This document shows, piece after piece, positions 1 through 7,066 of a DNA stretch of 7,066 nt. Every line of letters starts with the position of its first letter. The stretch's first letter is position 1. The translations under genes were made by a program, and so were the position numbers. Under the pieces are notes generated by a model that was not told the origin of the DNA, did no database searches, and saw only the letters and a list, made by a program, of their open reading frames with translations. The DNA is from a virus (taxonomy: Duplodnaviria; Heunggongvirae; Uroviricota; Caudoviricetes), in the IMG/VR virus record IMGVR_UViG_2531839200_000011, positions 1 through 7,066 of that record. One strand, given 5' to 3'.

Positions 1-210
1 ACGTTCAGCGCTGGTGAGCCCACCATCACCGCCCCCGGTATCCCGCTCATGCTGGCGAACCCAGACACGCAGAGTCTCCGGCGTACAGCCAATCTTTGGG
101 GCAATGGAACAAATTGCCGCCCACTGTGAGTCATATTCATCCTGACTTTCCAGAACCATACGAATCGCCCGCTGACGGACTTCGGGGGAAAAACGAGTAT
201 TTTTAGTCAT
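1..210 (-). CDS. IS3-family transposase OrfA (HTH subunit), N-terminal 70 codons; 3' part lies outside the window
   Basis: ATG at complement 208-210, preceded on the minus strand by GAGG-containing AGAGGTAAACAGG. The translation is a characteristic IS3-family OrfA N-terminus. The frame is open to the window edge. Confidence 0.85.
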
Positions 211-264
211 CCTGTTTACCTCTTTCTCAGGGAGTTTAGTCTCCAGGATTTCCGGGGCGGTTCA
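1..264 (-). mobile_element. Partial IS3-family insertion sequence (IS629/IS1203-like), left-end terminal inverted repeat at about 211-264; the element continues beyond the window start
   Basis: The minus strand of 1-210 translates to [70 protein letters not shown], which matches from memory the N-terminus of IS629-type OrfA. The reverse complement of 211-264 starts TGAACCGCCCCGG, a typical IS3-family TG terminus. Base composition and coding change abruptly after about 264. Confidence 0.8.
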
Positions 265-497
265 CTCAGGCTGAAATAGGTCGTTATATGGGGGTCGCTC
301 AACAGACGGTTTGGCAATGGTTTAGCTTTGGCGTTCCCCCAAAGCAGGTAATTCCGTTATGCCAACTAATGAAGTGGGAAGTTACCCCGCATGAAATCCG
401 CCCAGATATTTATCCTAACCCAACCGACGGTTTACCTGTTGGATGTAAGGTTAACACATCAAATGCGCCGGAGTTGATTCATGAAAATCAAGCATGA
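265..497 (+). pseudogene. 5'-truncated cro/ydaS-type HTH regulator gene, interrupted by the IS insertion
   Basis: The frame is open from the IS junction to the TGA at 495-497 and reads ...QAEIGRYMGVAQQTVWQWFSFGVPPKQVIPLCQLMKWEVTPHEIRPDIYPNP.... This has the recognition-helix signature (GVxQQxVxQW) and the C-terminal 'RPD' motif of YdaS/Cro-like proteins. The N-terminal helices and promoter are missing. The ATG at 288 is probably an internal Met, not the native start. Confidence 0.6.
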
Positions 498-906
498 ACA
501 CATCCGCATGGCGATGAATGCCTGGGCGCATCCGGACGGCGAAAAAGTACCGGCTGCGAAAATTACCAAAGCGTATTTCGAGCTGGGAATGACGTTCCCG
601 GAACTGTATGACGACAGCCATCCGGAAGCCATGGCTCGCAATACTCAGAAAATTTTCCGCTGGGTGGAGAAAGACACTCCTGATGCGGTTAAAAAAATTC
701 AGGCGTTGTTACCAGCGATCGAAAAAGCGATGCCGCCTCCGCTGGTGGCCCGAATGCGCAGCCACAGTTCCGCTTATTTTCGGGAGTTGGTAGAGACGAA
801 GGAACGGCTGGTGAAAGATATTGATGATTTCGTTGCATCAGCGATCGTTCTGTTCGATCAGATGAATCGTGGTGGCCCGGCAGGAAACACTCTGGCTGTG
901 CATTAA
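481..906 (+). CDS. ydaT: YdaT-family protein (lambdoid prophage early gene; putative CII-like/toxin-like protein)
   Basis: 141-aa ORF beginning MKIKHEHI and ending ...VH, the characteristic start of Rac-type YdaT as I recall it. GGAG lies 8 nt upstream. The start overlaps the 3' end of the cro-like remnant, consistent with an operon. Confidence 0.7.
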   Translation: MKIKHEHIRMAMNAWAHPDGEKVPAAKITKAYFELGMTFPELYDDSHPEAMARNTQKIFRWVEKDTPDAVKKIQALLPAIEKAMPPPLVARMRSHSSAYFRELVETKERLVKDIDDFVASAIVLFDQMNRGGPAGNTLAVH

Positions 907-919
907 TTGGGTAATAAAT

Positions 920-1429
920 ATGAGTAATGACAAAAAATTGACACTGAGCGTTTACGAAAACAGTCCGCACATCTGGCGTGGCGGTTTATCTGATGTGGAG
1001 CTGGCAGAGTGGTTGATACATAAAGCTAATGCGCTGCTCTGGCGTTTGTCAGCCAGAGAACAGCGCAAGGAAACCAGAATAAAGCTGGCTGATGCAGAAG
1101 CGTGTGCCGGGCTTATTGAGGATTATACAAATCTTGGTATTTCTTCAGCAGAGAGTGATCCCATTCAGCCTCTGAGCAGGGAGTCAATCCAGCACGCTGG
1201 TTGTATGGCACATCTTGTAACTGCTCGTCAACATGAGGTGGGTATTGGATCACTTCCGGCGGGATATTCGCTGATTCCAGAGCTGGTTGAAGCAAGAAAA
1301 TCAGTTCAGAAAAAGAGAGATGACGCACTTCAATTATTGAGAGAGCACTATGGCGCGATACCAGAATGCGAACAGCGTCGATACCCTGAAGGTTATGAAT
1401 GGATGCAGTCTCTTTTTGAAGTTCGCTAA
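920..1429 (+). CDS. Hypothetical prophage early protein (169 aa)
   Basis: ATG at 920 lies 13 nt after the ydaT stop and the frame is open to TAA at 1427-1429. Composition is protein-like (MSNDKKLTLSVYENSPHIWRGG...). No family recognised. The track ORF starting at 869 overlaps ydaT and is probably an artefactual 5' extension. Confidence 0.5.
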   Translation: MSNDKKLTLSVYENSPHIWRGGLSDVELAEWLIHKANALLWRLSAREQRKETRIKLADAEACAGLIEDYTNLGISSAESDPIQPLSRESIQHAGCMAHLVTARQHEVGIGSLPAGYSLIPELVEARKSVQKKRDDALQLLREHYGAIPECEQRRYPEGYEWMQSLFEVR

Positions 1430-1646
1430 TCAATATGTCGAGACGAAGGTATGTTTCGGCGCGCAGCCAGGCTCTGTAATCCGGGAGCATTTCGGGGCTG
1501 TTACACCAGCGGTTTGTTGCTGCAACATTTAATACATGAGCCTGATAAAGGCTTTTCAAAAAATACATGTCGAACCTCCTCTGGTTCTGTCGATTGGGAA
1601 CCACAGATTATATCCGGAGGAAGGTTCGGCACCAGATGAGGTAGCC

Positions 1647-2738
1647 ATGCGTGATTACGCAAAAGTTTCTCCGCGATTCTGGCTGGGAGAAACGGGGAGA
1701 GAACTTAGAAAGGCGGGTGCAGAAGCGCAAGTTGTTGCTTTTTACCTGATGACATCCCCTCACGCAAATATGCTGGGTTTGTATTACCTGCCAGTTTTAT
1801 ACCTTGCTCATGAAACCGGGCTTGGTCTGGAAGGGGCTTCAAAGGGGCTTAAAAGGGCTGTTGAAGCTGGTTTTTGTAGCTATGACCATGATGCAGAGAT
1901 GGTCTGGGTCCATGAAATGGCAGCCTGGCAGGTTGGGGAAACGTTGAAGCCTGGCGATAACCGTTGTGCAGGTGTCAGGAATGAGTATGCATCATTACCT
2001 GAAAACGCTTTTCTGTCAGTGTTTTACGACAGATATAAAACGGATTTCCATCTGGATGTGAGGCGGAATAATAGCCGAAATTCGGTAAGGGGCTTCGAAG
2101 GGGCTTTTAAGGGGCTTCGAAGCCAAGAACAGGAACAGGAGCAGGAGAAAGAACAGGAACAGGACAAAAACACTATGGTTCATGGCAAAAAAAACACCAC
2201 GAACCAGGCAGGGGATGTTCAGACCGTCAATCCTGGTCAGCCAGCAGGCACGACACCGGAAGCCGATTCGGGCGCTGTGCAGCAGGTGATGACCGCAGGG
2301 TCGGAGCAATCACACCAACTGCAGCAGCCTGAAGCCGATTCCGCCATTCAGCGGGAAGCCGATCGGGTAGTCCCGGAAAGCACCGGGCAGTCTGTGGGAC
2401 GAGTGGATTATCCGGATGTGTTCGAACAGGTCTGGCGGGAATACCCGTTGCGTGCTGGGGCAAACCCGAAGAAATCCGCTTTCAGTGCCTGGAAGGCCAG
2501 ATTGCGCGAGGGGGTGCCACCAGAGACCATGCTGGATGGTGTGAGGCGTTACGCGAGATACCTGGCGGCGACCGGGAAAGCGGGAACGGAATTTGTTCAG
2601 CGAGCGACGACGTTTTTTGGGCCGGACCGGAATTTTGAAAACCCCTGGTTGCTCCCGGTAAGCGGCACGAACAACCAGCGTTGTGTGAATCATATTTCTG
2701 AACCGGATACCGAAATTCCGCCGGGATTCAGGGGGTGA
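1647..2738 (+). CDS. Phage replication initiator / replisome organiser with DnaT-like (primosomal protein 1) C-terminal domain
   Basis: The ATG at 1647 has GAGG 6 nt upstream; an alternative in-frame ATG at 1536 has no SD. The C-terminus ...VNHISEPDTEIPPGFRG matches the C-terminal signature of E. coli DnaT from memory. The N-terminal part (MRDYAKVSPRFWLGETGREL...) resembles YdaU/DUF1376-type phage replication proteins. The gene sits immediately upstream of a DnaC paralog, mirroring the chromosomal dnaT-dnaC pair. Confidence 0.8.
   Translation: MRDYAKVSPRFWLGETGRELRKAGAEAQVVAFYLMTSPHANMLGLYYLPVLYLAHETGLGLEGASKGLKRAVEAGFCSYDHDAEMVWVHEMAAWQVGETLKPGDNRCAGVRNEYASLPENAFLSVFYDRYKTDFHLDVRRNNSRNSVRGFEGAFKGLRSQEQEQEQEKEQEQDKNTMVHGKKNTTNQAGDVQTVNPGQPAGTTPEADSGAVQQVMTAGSEQSHQLQQPEADSAIQREADRVVPESTGQSVGRVDYPDVFEQVWREYPLRAGANPKKSAFSAWKARLREGVPPETMLDGVRRYARYLAATGKAGTEFVQRATTFFGPDRNFENPWLLPVSGTNNQRCVNHISEPDTEIPPGFRG
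1831..1860 (+). repeat. Three tandem 11-bp repeats AAGGGGCTTnn (third copy degenerate) inside the replication gene
   Basis: Read directly: aaggggcttc(a) at 1831, aaggggctta(a) at 1842, aagggctg at 1853, with 11-bp periodicity. Confidence 0.5.
2087..2124 (+). repeat. Three perfect-core tandem 11-bp repeats AAGGGGCTTnn plus palindrome GGCTTCGAAGCC; candidate iterons of an internal origin
   Basis: Read directly: aaggggcttcg (2087-2097), aaggggctttt (2098-2108), aaggggcttcg (2109-2119). ggcttcgaagcc (2113-2124) is a perfect 12-bp palindrome. The core is the same as in the 1831-1860 cluster. Confidence 0.5.
2127..2168 (+). repeat. In-frame hexanucleotide repeat (GAACAG)n-like, 7 units, encoding an EQEQEQEKEQEQDK linker, followed by an A-rich tract
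   Basis: Read directly: gaacag gaacag gagcag gagaaa gaacag gaacag gacaaa. It is in frame with the 1647 start. An A-rich stretch (gcaaaaaaaacacc) follows at about 2185-2198. Confidence 0.9.
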
Positions 2739-2744
2739 TGTGGC

Positions 2745-3491
2745 ATGAAAAACATTGCGGCAGCCGGGGTTCTTGAACGTATTCGCAGACTTGCACCACA
2801 GGCGTCGGTTCCACCGTACCGGACGGTGGAGGAGTGGCGGGAATGGCAACTTGCTGAAGGACGAAAACGCAGCGAGGAGATTAACCGCCAGAATCACCAG
2901 TTGCGGGTGGAAAAAATCCTGAATCGTTCGGGCATCCAGCCTCTGCACAGCAAATGCTCGTTTGCGAATTATCAGGTGCAGAACGACGGGCAAAAATACG
3001 CGCTGAGCCAGGCCAAATCCATAGCTGACGAACTGATGACCGGGTGCACGAATTTTGTGTTCAGCGGTAAAACCGGCACCGGGAAAAATCACCTTGCAGC
3101 GGCGATGGGTAACCGGCTGATGGCGAAGGGGCGCAGCGTGATTATCGTCACCGTGTCTGATGTCATGAGCGTGTTGCATGACAGCTACGACAACGGCAAA
3201 TCCGGGGAAAAATTTTTACAGGAGCTTTGCAGTGTTGATTTGCTGGTCCTGGATGAAATAGGCGTTCAGCGGGAGACGAAAAACGAGCAGGTGGTATTAC
3301 ACCAGATAATTGATCGCCGGACAGCATCACTGTGCAGTGTCGGGATGTTAACAAACCTGAATCATGCCGCAATGAGTACACTTCTTGGTGAGAGGATTAT
3401 GGACCGCATGACCATGAACGGTGGTCGATGGGTGACGTTTAACTGGGATAGCTGGCGTCCAAATGTCAGCAATATGAGGGTTGTGAAGTAA
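2745..3491 (+). CDS. dnaC: DnaC-family replicative helicase loader (prophage DnaC paralog, YdaV-like)
   Basis: The 248-aa ORF starts 7 nt after the upstream stop, with a GGGGG tract upstream. Walker A FSGKTGTGKNHLAAA has the unusual GKN also found in E. coli DnaC. Walker B is DLLVLDEIG. The C-terminal stretch GMLTNLNHAAMSTLLGERIMDRM...WVTFNWDSWR is closely DnaC-like from memory. Confidence 0.9.
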   Translation: MKNIAAAGVLERIRRLAPQASVPPYRTVEEWREWQLAEGRKRSEEINRQNHQLRVEKILNRSGIQPLHSKCSFANYQVQNDGQKYALSQAKSIADELMTGCTNFVFSGKTGTGKNHLAAAMGNRLMAKGRSVIIVTVSDVMSVLHDSYDNGKSGEKFLQELCSVDLLVLDEIGVQRETKNEQVVLHQIIDRRTASLCSVGMLTNLNHAAMSTLLGERIMDRMTMNGGRWVTFNWDSWRPNVSNMRVVK

Positions 3492-3512
3492 TTTTGTCCG
3501 GAGGAAATTTTA

Positions 3513-4283
3513 ATGGAAACCGTATCTGACGCACTGAAAGCACTGAAAAAAGCCTCTTCACATGTGGTGGCAGCTCGCCTTGGAATCAGTCGTGAAGAGG
3601 CTGTCAACGAGCTGTGGGAACTCAAAATAAATGGCGTCGTTGATAAAACTGGTCACACCTGGTTTCTGGCTGGCGAAGGTGAATCCCGGGTAACCGAAGA
3701 GCGGCCAGTAAAATCTGAAGCACAGGATATGCTGACCGGGGAGGTCGAACAAAAAGTTACCGCAGACATGATGATTGAGTTTATCGGTCAGGATGGGGCT
3801 AAAACGTGTGAGGAACTGGCGGGTAAGTTCGGTGTCAGTACTCGCAAGGTTGCTTCCACGCTGGCGGTGGTAACCGCAACGGGGCGGCTGGCACGCGTTA
3901 ATCAGAACGGTAAATTTCGTTACTGCATGCCGGGCGATAATTTACCAGCAGAGCCGAAAGCCGCGCTGGTAACGGAAAGTGATGGTAAGGCCTTTCCTCA
4001 GCCAGCAGGTGCTGCGTTACCAGTCCGGGAAGCCGCAACACAGGAAGAAATTAAAACAGAAACTGTGGCGGACATTGTGCAGCCGTTGCCATCGTTTACC
4101 GAAACGCAAGCAGATGAGCTGATTTTTCCGTCCCTTCGCAGGGCAAACCTGGCGCTGCGCAGGGCGAAAAGTGATGTTCAGAAGTGGGAGCGAGTCTGCG
4201 CCGCGCTGCGGGAGCTGAACAAGCACCGGGATATTGTTCGACAGATTACTGATTCTTCCCGCCGTGTTGTATCGGAAAAGTGA
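3513..4283 (+). CDS. Hypothetical prophage protein (256 aa) with two predicted winged-helix-like modules and a basic/coiled C-terminal segment
   Basis: GGAGG 8 nt upstream of the ATG and a long open frame. Two internally similar segments, ...VAARLGISREEAVNELWELKINGVV... and ...ELAGKFGVSTRKVASTLAVVTATGRLARV..., are followed by an acidic linker and RRANLALRRAKSDVQKWERV. Confidence 0.7.
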   Translation: METVSDALKALKKASSHVVAARLGISREEAVNELWELKINGVVDKTGHTWFLAGEGESRVTEERPVKSEAQDMLTGEVEQKVTADMMIEFIGQDGAKTCEELAGKFGVSTRKVASTLAVVTATGRLARVNQNGKFRYCMPGDNLPAEPKAALVTESDGKAFPQPAGAALPVREAATQEEIKTETVADIVQPLPSFTETQADELIFPSLRRANLALRRAKSDVQKWERVCAALRELNKHRDIVRQITDSSRRVVSEK

Positions 4284-4298
4284 TTGCCGGAGGCGCTT

Positions 4299-4712
4299 AT
4301 GGCAAAAGTATTTACACAGGAAGAGCGGGAAAAAATTAAAGGGCAGGTTGTTGAGCTAGTACGCCGGAGTGGGCGCGAGACGTTACGGCAACTGGAAGCC
4401 AAGACAGGTGCGACAAGATATCTGATGAGCGTTCTTGCCAGAGAGCTGGTTGCCAGTGGCGATGTATACAACTCTGGTTACGGGTTATTCCCATCTGAAC
4501 AGGCTCGTAAGGACTGGCAAAACGCCCGCAAAAAACTATCGAGGGCAAAACTGAAGAAACCGGTTGTGGTTGATCCTGACCTTATCTGGTCATTACCAGA
4601 CGGAGAAATACGCCGCTATGACAGGCAATTGAACATAATTTGTAGTGAGTGCCGTAACAGTGAAGTGATGCAGCGAGTTTTGATATTTTACACAGGAGTA
4701 ATGATGGAATAG
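4299..4712 (+). CDS. Hypothetical prophage protein (137 aa) with one winged-helix-like module related to those in the upstream gene
   Basis: ATG at 4299 with GGAGG 6 nt upstream, 15 nt after the previous stop. The segment VVELVRRSGRETLRQLEAKTGATRYLMSVLARELVASGDV follows the same pattern as the upstream modules. The track start at 4284 would overlap the upstream stop. Confidence 0.65.
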   Translation: MAKVFTQEEREKIKGQVVELVRRSGRETLRQLEAKTGATRYLMSVLARELVASGDVYNSGYGLFPSEQARKDWQNARKKLSRAKLKKPVVVDPDLIWSLPDGEIRRYDRQLNIICSECRNSEVMQRVLIFYTGVMME

Positions 4713-6060
4713 TGAAAATAACATGAAACCTTTGGATTCTGGTGTTTCAGTGGATGGGAAAAGAGCAGATACATAGAAAATGAATAGCAATAATTCACAG
4801 TCTGGATGTTGTTTGTATGCTTATAAAATGATCCTAGTATGCATTGCCGGAGTTGAATCAGCTCCAATGAAGAAACTGAGAGGAGTATTTAGAAGATAGC
4901 TAAATGGATGTAATTATTAGTATCTAAAAAATAGTATTTTTGAAATGGGTCTAAGAACACAACAATGTACAAATGAGAAGTTATCTTTTAATATGTTCAA
5001 AGACCCATTAGGATTGATATCAGTTATGTTAGCTAGATTGATAAAGTGATTACATATTTTCTGTTATATGCTGAAATGAATAATGCTATTCCAGAGTGCA
5101 GCAGAGAAAGTCTCCTGATGATTGAGCTCTGGAAATTGTACAATAGAAAAATTACTGTATTTTTCTGTCAAAATATTTCTCAAAACAGATTCCGCTTTGA
5201 TGGCTTCAGGATATAAAGATGCGGAGTAATCAAGGCTAAGATTTCCGTTAAGCAAGCATATACTTTTAGTGTGCTTTGATTCTGATATATCATCTTTAAT
5301 TATCTTGATGATTCTTTCATTCTGCCATAGAAGTGATGGTGCAGATATATAATAATAGTTAAAGCATGAATTATTTTTTAAGCAATCAAGCACAAAAATA
5401 GCACCTAGCGAGTGCCCCCATATACCGATTCTGGAACTGTTCGGAGCAATAGTACTAACCCATGGCATGATCTGAGTTAGTAATAATTCTCGGAAAGACT
5501 GGCTTCCTCCACCAGTAAAGTAGATCCATGCTGGTTTAGAGTTATCAACAATAGCATTTTCACCATCAGGAGTATAATCGTAAGCACGGCGATGAATGCT
5601 AAGGTTATTCCAAGATTCATAACCAAGTGTAACTAACACTGGTGGATTGGGTAGTGCATCAATAACAGGCAGAATATCAGAAATGTAATTGTTGGCACTA
5701 TTCCCATCAAGTATATAAAGAGTTGCATTATTTTTTTTAATGTTTTTTGGAGTAAAAATACATATTTTATATTTGGTGTCATGGTTAATTGAGTTAAATA
5801 TGCGTGTTTGACAATGAATGTCCATATGTTTAGTCATGCGTTCTCCCCATGAGCATTAAAGGATGCTTAAGATATGCTATGTCACTGATAAAAAATTTGT
5901 TGTGTGTGTTTAGTTATTTTATCTACCTCCATTATGATTTAAGACTGATATATGTTATCAGCAAAGGTACATCGTTATTATTTTACCTGTCAATACATTT
6001 GATATTGATTATCGTTTACATCGCTTGCTTAGGAAATTGAAGGCAGGTAACTATCATGTC
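4713..6060. other. AT-rich island (moron-like cargo insertion) between the phage replication module and the hok locus
   Basis: Composition shifts sharply to AT-rich sequence across this interval. It holds a single convincing gene, on the opposite strand to all flanking phage genes, flanked by non-coding AT-rich DNA. Confidence 0.7.
5064..5837 (-). CDS. Alpha/beta-hydrolase, esterase family (PF00756-like 'putative esterase'; Fes/IroE/esterase-D-like fold), encoded in an AT-rich island
   Basis: 257-aa ORF on the minus strand; on that strand the start is preceded by GGGGAGAACGC, i.e. a GGAG about 5 nt upstream. Nucleophile elbow G-H-S-L-G (IGIWGHSLGA), an upstream YILDGN motif and a C-terminal His (ELNHQETF) fit a Ser-Asp-His esterase. 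No obvious N-terminal signal peptide. G+C looks roughly one-third by eye versus above 50% in flanking phage genes. Confidence 0.75.
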   Translation of the reverse strand: MTKHMDIHCQTRIFNSINHDTKYKICIFTPKNIKKNNATLYILDGNSANNYISDILPVIDALPNPPVLVTLGYESWNNLSIHRRAYDYTPDGENAIVDNSKPAWIYFTGGGSQSFRELLLTQIMPWVSTIAPNSSRIGIWGHSLGAIFVLDCLKNNSCFNYYYISAPSLLWQNERIIKIIKDDISESKHTKSICLLNGNLSLDYSASLYPEAIKAESVLRNILTEKYSNFSIVQFPELNHQETFSAALWNSIIHFSI

Positions 6061-6319
6061 AATGAACTAACCCACAGTCTAACGTACTTCTTTCCCCAAT
6101 CACCAACAACCAAATTCCTGTTATCACCACTGGGATTTTGGCGCAACTTCATGGTGCAGAGGTAAATAGCATCAAGCAAAATCTCTTTTTCCGTTGTTGT
6201 CCTTATGGGACGTCTGTCTTTCTGACCGATTTCATATTGGCGAGGTAATGGGAAGTTAAGTAGAATAGCTGCGGGTGCTTGAGGCTATCTGCCTCGGGCA
6301 TGAACACCAACGGCAGATA

Positions 6320-6400
6320 GAGAAAAGCCCCAGTTAACATTACGCGTCCTGCAAGACGCCTAACATTAATCTGAGGCTCAATCTATGAACGGCAAATCTA
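6320..6400 (-). ncRNA. sok: Putative Sok-like antisense RNA region (approximate), antisense to the hok leader / upstream ORF start
   Basis: Inferred from hok/sok architecture. On the minus strand near 6390-6430 there is TTGCCT, a 17-bp spacer, then TAACCT as a weak promoter-like pair. A stem-loop (atctgcc...ggcagat, 6286-6319) lies in the leader. The boundaries are not determined. Confidence 0.3.
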
Positions 6401-6441
6401 GGTTAGCCTCTTACGTGCCGAAAGGCAAGGAGAAGCAGGCT

Positions 6442-6597
6442 ATGAAGCAGCAAAAGGCGATGTTAATCGCCCTGATCGTCATCTGTTTAACCGTCATAGT
6501 GACGGCACTGGTAACGAGGAAAGACCTCTGCGAGGTACGAGTCCGAACCGGCCAGACGGAGGTCGCTGTCTTCACAGCTTACGAACCTGAGGAGTAA
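6442..6597 (+). CDS. hok: Hok/Gef-family type I toxin (51 aa membrane peptide), near-identical to RelF/HokD as recalled
   Basis: The translation MKQQKAMLIALIVICLTVIVTALVTRKDLCEVRVRTGQTEVAVFTAYEPEE is a canonical Hok-family sequence. An in-frame upstream ATG at 6385 gives the 70-aa track ORF, which may be the leader or a Mok-like reading frame. Confidence 0.9.
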   Translation: MKQQKAMLIALIVICLTVIVTALVTRKDLCEVRVRTGQTEVAVFTAYEPEE

Positions 6598-6664
6598 GAG
6601 ACCTGGCGGGGGAGAAATCCCTCGCCACCTCTGATGAATCAGGCATCCTCAACGCACCCGCACT

Positions 6665-6692
6665 TAACCCGCTTCGGCGGGTTTTGTTTTTT
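6665..6692 (+). terminator. Rho-independent terminator of the hok transcript
   Basis: aacccgc-ttcg-gcgggtt hairpin followed by the T-run ttttgtttttt, about 70 nt after the hok stop. Confidence 0.8.
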
Positions 6693-6764
6693 CCTGGCAT
6701 TCTGGTTTACAATTCGCACGCCAGCCTGAACAACTGGCACCTGCTGCGCCAGCAGAGAAAACAG

Positions 6765-7043
6765 ATGGCGCACGATACCAAATTATACAATTCGGATAAC
6801 TCTGCCGCCCCTGCCAGCAGGCACGGACGGCGTTCTCACGCATTCAAATCTGACTGGTACCAGCACCACCCATGCACCGAAGAACAGGCCGAATGGCTCA
6901 TTCAGTGTTACCGCAGGCGCGGATACGAGGTTAAAAAAGCCCTCAGCCTCGACTACCGTCACTGGATAATCTCCGTCAGGCTCCCTTACTCCGAACGCCC
7001 ACCGCGTCCGTCCCGCACATTCCAGCAACGCATCTGGAGGTAA
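6765..7043 (+). CDS. Hypothetical small basic protein (92 aa)
   Basis: ATG at 6765 downstream of the hok terminator; the track start at 6684 is a TTG inside the terminator and is unlikely. Translation: MAHDTKLYNSDNSAAPASRHGRRSHAFKSDWYQHHPCTEEQAEWLIQCYRRRGYEVKK.... Its position downstream of hok is analogous to rem downstream of hokD in the K-12 Qin prophage, but I cannot verify sequence identity. Confidence 0.5.
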   Translation: MAHDTKLYNSDNSAAPASRHGRRSHAFKSDWYQHHPCTEEQAEWLIQCYRRRGYEVKKALSLDYRHWIISVRLPYSERPPRPSRTFQQRIWR

Positions 7044-7044
7044 C

Positions 7045-7066
7045 GTGCGGGTATTACTTCGACCTG
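7045..7066 (+). CDS. Possible 5' end of the next gene (GTG start), truncated by the window end
   Basis: GGAGG at 7036-7040 is followed 4 nt later by GTG at 7045 with an open frame to the window edge. Only 7 codons are visible. Confidence 0.2.

Follow-up and report, generated by a model that had tools for sequence, protein, structure and literature searches.

We analysed a 7,066-nt stretch of prophage DNA, referred to here as the window, whose left edge lies inside an insertion sequence. Our comparisons make it highly probable (about 85%) that a 1310-bp IS629 element transposed into codon 14/15 of the cro-like gene of the lambdoid prophage Sp4/CP-933M, duplicating the trinucleotide CTC, in a sublineage of Escherichia coli O157:H7, and that it constitutes one further inactivating lesion of this prophage. 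From position 263 to its end at 7066, the window is 99.69% identical to positions 1168510-1175313 of the Sakai genome, within the annotated 'prophage Sp4', where the gene order is ECs_1069 (repressor), ECs_1070 (cro-like), ECs_1071 (ydaT), ECs_5703, ECs_1073 (replication protein) and ECs_1074 (DnaC-type loader). In two related loci, L015 and L016, the integrase gene adjoins the genes for Bax1-I (yccA) and DsrC (tusE), which fits the Sp4/CP-933M site. The possibility that the locus is CP-933P was ruled out by the N terminus of the repressor, the length of the intergenic region and the Sakai annotation, which assign it to the paralogous Sp4/CP-933M. The left edge of the window comprises the following features.

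1-264, minus strand: left end of IS629/IS1203 (IS3 family), recognised by identity to the complete 1310-bp copy in locus L014 and by Pfam HTH_Tnp_1
265-267, no strand: right-hand copy of the 3-bp target-site duplication CTC, from the comparison with L016
265-497, plus strand: 3' part of a YdaS/Cro-family gene (nt 41-273, codons 14/15-90 and stop), homologue of ECs_1070, Pfam YdaS_toxin
288-497, plus strand: residual 69-aa open reading frame (ORF) from the internal Met22, from gene calls and an AlphaFold model

IS629 and the interrupted cro-like gene

When reverse-complemented, window positions 1-264 are identical at 264/264 nt to the first 264 nt of the complete IS629/IS1203 copy (1310 bp, positions 7119-8428) in L014, which is O157:H7 strain 9234. 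The terminal inverted repeats of that copy match each other, and it is accompanied by a 3-bp duplication, TGT. It lies in the same prophage and represents a second, independent IS629 insertion, located at window-equivalent positions 5880-5882. On the minus strand, the IS part of the window opens with TGAACCGCCCCGGAAATCCTGGAGACTAAACTCCCTGAG and its terminus reads TGAACCGCCCC, equivalent to GGGGCGGTTCA at window 254-264, so that the canonical TG of the IS629 end falls at base 264. The left inverted repeat (IRL) occupies approximately positions 240-264; IRL and the right inverted repeat (IRR) match in the complete L014 and L016 copies, with the first 13 nt being identical. The start codon of orfA (ATG) is found at 210-208 and is followed by the first 70 codons before the left edge of the window is reached, and the minus-strand ORF from 210 matches Pfam HTH_Tnp_1 with an E value of 1.4e-7. 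The IS end is 99.6% identical to the Sakai Sp4 copy annotated as IS629, and copies like that of L014 are labelled 'IS3-like element IS1203 family transposase, programmed frameshift' in RefSeq and IS629 in Sakai. The length typical of the family (about 1.2-1.5 kb) and its organisation of orfA (HTH) and orfB (DDE/rve) were recovered in L016, where the IS copy spans 1310 bp and its 404-aa product matches HTH_Tnp_1, HTH_21 and rve; the programmed frameshift, of the -1 type in this family, is annotated by RefSeq on IS copies identical to the IS629 found here.

To the right of the IS, window positions 265-497 represent the final 233 nt of a 273-nt (90-aa) gene of the YdaS/Cro family of helix-turn-helix (HTH) regulators (Pfam PF15943, COG4197). 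The reading frame is open from position 240 up to the stop codon at 495-497, and the translated stretch 264-494 scores 38.9 bits against Pfam YdaS_toxin, above the cut-off of 30, with the match beginning at profile position 11 of 65. The full-length YdaS homologue scores 38.8 bits against PF15943 (cut-off of 30) over residues 15-65. Uninterrupted homologues, 273 nt and 90 aa long, are present in O157:H7 strains PV15-279, F3113 and Sakai (ECs_1070); in all three, the start of the intact gene is found 40 nt leftward of the position matching window 265, and from the IS terminus onward the window fragment is 100% identical to the intact gene of PV15-279 and F3113. A GAGGAGG Shine-Dalgarno sequence precedes the ATG of the 90-aa frame in the intact loci. 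The initial annotation, made from the letters of the window, had proposed an IS3-family element inside a cro-like gene, with the transposase gene directed away from the phage genes. The first proposal is borne out by the 264/264 identity to IS629 together with the YdaS fragment and the second by the minus-strand orfA with its HTH_Tnp_1 match, while the IS terminus that it had placed at about 264 turned out to be exact, as homology to the intact genes ends precisely there.

The complete event is visible in L016 (GCA_013141925.1, SWKA01000005.1), a 5.29-Mb O157:H7 contig found by exact look-up of P0005, a 73-aa protein called by the PGAP annotation pipeline on the gene fragment. Positions 9726-16791 of this contig correspond to the window, with no mismatch over window bases 1-6758 and 19 differences, all located in 6759-7044. 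The order in L016 is a repressor gene (8127-8528, minus strand), the intergenic region, nt 1-43 of ydaS, IS629, and the rest of ydaS. The 5' stub of ydaS ends with AAATACACTC, and the gene resumes after the IS with CTCAGGCTG. The IS629 copy is located at 8680-9989 (1310 bp), carries its transposase gene on the minus strand, directed towards the repressor, and differs from the L014 copy by one SNP. CTC is duplicated at 8677-8679 and 9990-9992, flanking both IS ends, and in silico removal of the IS and one CTC from L016 restores an intact ydaS. Looking leftward in L016, as the initial annotation had suggested, revealed the other IS end, the 3-bp duplication, the 5' cro stub and the repressor/operator region, and the uninterrupted homologous prophages with which it had proposed a comparison exist in PV15-279, F3113 and Sakai. 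Its statement that the IS removed the 5' end of cro does not hold, since in L016 this end is displaced 1313 bp leftward. As the window itself stops inside the IS, the evidence for a simple insertion comes from L016, a contig with 19 differences from the window. In addition, the draft contigs L007, L008 and L012, each representing several samples, have their first base 4-5 nt beyond the IS end, as would be expected of short-read assemblies that break at repeats.

The split gene in L016 thus consists of a 43-nt 5' stub beside the divergent repressor and operator and a 233-nt 3' remnant that has no start codon before Met22. In silico reconstruction predicts that the 14 native ydaS codons are fused to IS sequence in a 92-aa hybrid frame; exact look-up of this predicted ORF, which runs from the ydaS stub into IRR, gave no match, the query having been the F13 allele and L016 carrying Y13. 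As for the remnant, the product of the ORF starting at Met22 is probably non-functional. The single-sequence AlphaFold model of YdaS, of moderate confidence (mean pLDDT of 61.5), contains helices at residues 5-12, 15-22, 26-35 and 39-48, and a start at Met22 would therefore lose the predicted HTH helices 1 and 2. P0005, which PGAP calls a 'helix-turn-helix domain-containing protein', starts from a non-canonical ATA at window 276 (276-497) and is more likely an artefact of annotation than a real product. When solved structures were searched with the full-length YdaS sequence, the matches were marginal only, among them Xylella Cro 3bd1 (E value of 0.15). The putative Cro-like role of the Sp4 protein is suggested by its Pfam membership, its gene position and the Sakai classification 'antirepressor +'.

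In the intact loci L001, L002 and L021, the minus-strand repressor gene is followed by a 108-bp intergenic region and then by ydaS on the plus strand. The native intergenic region of L001 contains a perfect inverted repeat with 15-bp arms at 2893-2931, ACAATAAAAAACTGT N9 ACAGTTTTTTATTGT, and it also carries direct repeats 25-26 bp apart. The inverted and direct repeats are likely to be the Sp4 operators, which in the lineage of the window would have been displaced.

At the opposite end of the window, the 286-bp stretch 6759-7044 holds all 19 differences not only from L016 but also from L008 and L012. It lies inside a 92-aa ORF upstream of a DUF968 gene, and the best full-length RefSeq match to window 6700-7066 reaches 95.4%. 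Its sequence suggests a patch acquired by gene conversion from a different lambdoid prophage.

Distribution of the insertion and other lesions in the gene

The junction was absent from 5,426 complete RefSeq E. coli genomes searched with 1000-nt and 241-nt queries, none of which was covered to at least 80% by any match, and an exact junction scan of metagenome contigs returned 0 matches. Apparent matches in O111, extending 25 nt beyond the IS end, were rejected after alignment as chance similarity adjoining tccP2. The phage side of the window is widespread: megablast against the same 5,426 genomes matched window 261/263-1000 at 99.9-100% in many enterohemorrhagic E. coli genomes (O157:H7, O26 and O121), where the region is annotated as a 'transcriptional regulator' followed by a 'toxin YdaT family protein'. 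The gene is present in 507 of these complete genomes; 506 of them show no interruption at the insertion site, and 435 match the intact CAG/TAC allele exactly. With the junction in 0/5,426 genomes and 506/507 gene carriers uninterrupted, the insertion is rare and lineage-specific. Collectively, the insertion is real, simple and limited to a minor O157:H7 sublineage.

The same gene carries other lesions. In L004, L006, L009-L011, L015 and L017-L020, codon 11 is changed from CAG to TAG (Q11 amber) together with two linked SNPs; in L004, where the Met22 ATG is at 10001, the amber codon lies 33 nt upstream, at about 9968. None of the 507 complete RefSeq genomes with the gene has this allele, and it is the Q11 amber codon that accounts for the 69-aa and 73-aa gene calls at most loci without the IS. 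In strain LZHX12 (L023 5005-5736, NZ_CP155555.1), only the first 38 nt of ydaS remain. The break lies 5 bp from the IS629 site and is followed by an internal piece of an IS3-family transposase other than that of IS629, and the locus lacks the 3' part of ydaS as well as ydaT, the ECs1072-family gene and the O-like and dnaC-like genes.

Sp4 was defective already in strains without this IS629 insertion (PMC2669165): its repressor has no peptidase domain, its Xis and recombination functions are defective, ISEc8 interrupts its nu1 gene, and regional replication from Sp5 is its sole route of induction; the same report lists the prophage with a DnaC-type loader and 'antirepressor +'. The IS629 insertion is therefore one further lesion in Sp4 and not the cause of its crypticity, and the proposal of the initial annotation that the IS would leave the prophage cryptic or domesticated was overstated. 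Differences between strains in the copy number and location of IS629 are well documented (PMC7430833, PMC2669165), and the event described here resembles other O157:H7 IS629 polymorphisms, such as stx2::IS629 in FRIK1275, in its element, host lineage, prophage gene target and 3-bp duplication. In Sp4, ISEc8 hit nu1, whereas here the target is the ECs_1070-type cro-like gene.

Downstream genes and likely consequences

The genes and sites immediately downstream of the insertion are the following.

474-491, no strand: operator motif of YdaT (CII-like), TTGATTCATGAAAATCAA, an exact match to TTGATT-N6-AATCAA
481-906, plus strand: ydaT, CII-like regulator of 141 aa (PDB 3c4r and 8bt1; Pfam YdaT_toxin)
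1113-1568, minus strand: ECs1072-family phage-associated gene (NCBIfam NF033230, 105.7 bits versus a cut-off of 70; RefSeq annotation)
1647-2738, plus strand: O-like replication initiator, homologue of ECs_1073, 'phage replication protein' in Sakai
2745-3491, plus strand: DnaC-type helicase loader, homologue of ECs_1074 (NCBIfam PRK12377, 509 bits; Pfam IstB_IS21 and Bac_DnaA)

The motif TTGATT-N6-AATCAA has a single match in the window, with 0.06 expected by chance, and this match overlaps the stop codon of ydaS and the start of ydaT. In CP-933P, TTGATT-N6-AATCAA was described as the high-affinity operator of YdaT and lies at the end of ydaS (PMC9986795). The YdaT protein encoded in the window matches PDB entries 3c4r (E value of 3.9e-83) and 8bt1 (E value of 1.4e-82), with approximately 88-90% identity in the alignments. 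The ECs1072-family gene lies in antisense orientation between ydaT and the O-like gene, so that rightward early transcription must pass through it, and the region 481-3491, which had at first been read as one operon, is not a single operon. The product of the O-like gene has no Pfam match, and the gene contains iteron-like AAGGGGCTT repeats at 1826-1867 and 2082-2134, about 11 bp apart. These repeats are a candidate origin, by analogy with the lambda ori located within O. A repeat coding for (EQ)n at 2125-2164 adjoins them. Farther downstream, a low-GC island (33-37%) at 4500-6000 contains an alpha/beta-hydrolase gene (5064-5837, minus strand), and a hok/mok/sok type I toxin-antitoxin module occupies 6273-6597, with an Rfam sok match of 105.6 bits at 6273-6447 and a 70-aa Mok/Hok ORF at 6385-6597.

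Direct experiments have addressed only the paralogous immunity region of CP-933P/Sp12, in which PaaR2, YdaS and YdaT behave as counterparts of CI, Cro and CII, respectively, the promoters PR and PRM lie within a 97-bp intergenic region, and a YdaT-activated PRE is located at the ydaS/ydaT boundary (PMC8630535). Stop codons in CP-933P ydaS abolish the ydaST-on subpopulation of a bistable switch; operator binding and repression of PRM and PR have been shown for the CP-933P YdaS only, and CP-933P YdaT showed no toxicity (PMC8630535). The authors of the CP-933P work mention a homologous system on CP-933M, which is the prophage of the window. As in CP-933P/Sp12 (paaA2-parE2), a repressor-antitoxin-toxin operon is divergent from ydaS-ydaT, followed by O-like and DnaC-type genes; Sp4 YdaT is close to the crystallised protein, and TTGATT-N6-AATCAA is found at the ydaS/ydaT boundary. 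Unlike these shared traits, Sp4 YdaS has no detectable BLASTP similarity to its CP-933P counterpart, although both pass the Pfam YdaS threshold. The repressors are alike in their C-terminal halves only, the putative Sp4 operators differ from the CP-933P GTTTAGTAA repeats, the intergenic region is 108 bp long in Sp4 (RefSeq annotation) versus 97 bp in CP-933P, and in Sp4 an additional minus-strand gene precedes the O-like gene. Judged by sequence and gene order, the Sp4 and Sp12 regions are heteroimmune versions of one architecture.

The most direct consequence of the insertion, left out of the initial annotation, would be the loss of a functional Cro-like protein itself. Without this protein, and by analogy with the CP-933P ydaS stop mutant, the repressor/Cro bistable switch would be expected to stay in the repressor-on state, which would keep the paaA/parE-type toxin-antitoxin operon under repressor control. 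Approximately 1.3 kb of IS sequence lies in L016 between the operator region and the ydaT, O-like and dnaC-like genes. Rightward transcription of ydaT and of the replication genes would presumably be reduced, because PR would be repressed and the PR transcript would have to cross the IS in antisense. In the opposite direction, any firing of the putative YdaT-activated PRE-type promoter would send leftward transcripts into the IS, in the transposase sense, and not straight into the repressor gene. The initial annotation had stated that the downstream genes lose their native promoter; the structure of L016 shows that the IS does separate them from the operator region, whereas a loss of their transcription is an inference. 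Consensus scans for promoters and terminators, run on the window, on L016 and on the native intergenic region, revealed nothing convincing, with no promoter reading out of the IS; since these scans also missed the native PR, they have no evidential weight. In lambda cro-null prophages, loss of the anti-repressor should lock the repressed state and block completion of the lytic switch. Sp4 differs from this situation in that its repressor has no RecA-sensitive peptidase domain, the prophage is already defective, and the lesion also separates PR physically from the downstream genes. The polarity of IS629 is not absolute: another O157 strain, carrying stx2::IS629, still transcribed the genes beyond the element and produced functional phage (PMC7430833).

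Alternative explanations and significance

Other explanations of the interrupted gene were weighed against a simple insertion into an already defective prophage. It is unlikely that we are looking at selected domestication, in which loss of the Cro-like protein was advantageous, because the switch was locked or toxic ydaS/ydaT or early expression was avoided, and selected knockouts recurred. Three independent lesions within the first 14 codons (IS629, the Q11 amber and the LZHX12 truncation) would be in line with such selection, as would the reportedly deleterious expression of Rac ydaS/ydaT upon RacR depletion (PMC5700373, PMC5700377). However, uninterrupted genes in 506/507 RefSeq carriers, 435 of them exactly CAG/TAC and 0 with Q11*, argue against it, the linked SNPs common to the Q11* loci suggest a single origin, CP-933P YdaT showed no toxicity (PMC8630535), and an occasional lesion is in keeping with the neutral decay of a defective prophage. 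The occurrence of three independent lesions in 14 codons is suggestive, but set beside more than 500 intact copies it is better accounted for by neutral decay of a cryptic prophage than by selection. More doubtful still is an elaboration in which the Sp4-type cro-like gene is a recurrent inactivation target, the host gains from a switch frozen in the repressor-on state, and the IS629 transposase falls under the YdaT-activated PRE-type promoter; if true, such control would couple transposition to the switch state of the prophage. It is highly improbable that the junction arose by IS-mediated rearrangement, such as a deletion or inversion between IS629 copies, or as an assembly chimera, in which case something other than the repressor and operator would flank the far side of the IS. 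The window does end inside the IS and differs from L016 in 6759-7044, and O157 genomes hold about 17-21 recombination-capable IS629 copies (PMC7430833), but L016 is identical over 1-6758 and has both junctions and a perfect 3-bp duplication, and independent draft assemblies break at the same base.

We give just as little credence to Met22 as the true gene start, which would place the IS in a leader and leave a 69-aa protein intact and merely uncoupled from its promoter. Products of 69 aa and 73 aa are indeed called on 67 and 18 contigs, respectively, yet among the short-call loci examined, leaving aside L016 and the three contigs broken at the IS, all but two have the Q11 amber: L003 is an indel-ridden assembly, and the 5' region of L005 is free of lesions. 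The strong GAGGAGG Shine-Dalgarno sequence before the 90-aa ATG, the RefSeq annotation of 90 aa in the intact loci and the removal of the predicted HTH helices 1 and 2 likewise speak against Met22. IS elements are able to activate neighbouring genes, which counts for another alternative, namely that an outward promoter of the IS drives constitutive expression of ydaT and the replication genes, so that the insertion activates rather than silences. We regard it as very improbable, as the phage genes adjoin the IRL end. In the IS3 family, as known from IS2 and IS911, IRL forms the inward part of the transposase promoter, and the outward -35 element lies in IRR. In addition, no rightward sigma-70-like match was found in 150-560 at a relaxed threshold, in a scan that is insensitive. 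The transcription of downstream genes in stx2::IS629 (PMC7430833) counts in favour of activation.

A strain-specific IS629 knockout of the Sp4 cro-like gene is a known kind of event and involves no new mechanism. What differs from other IS629 polymorphisms is the specific target: the junction occurs in 0/5,426 complete RefSeq genomes, and among the papers searched, a literature search on ECs1069, ECs1070 and ECs1071 yielded none describing an insertion in the Sp4 cro-like gene. As a marker, the insertion cleanly identifies an O157:H7 sublineage and has little relevance beyond strain typing. As a natural cro-null allele of the Sp4 immunity region, it is comparable with the engineered ydaS stop mutants of CP-933P, and such a comparison would bear on a possible lock-on of the repressor/toxin-antitoxin operon and on the mobilisation of Sp4 by Sp5-driven regional replication.
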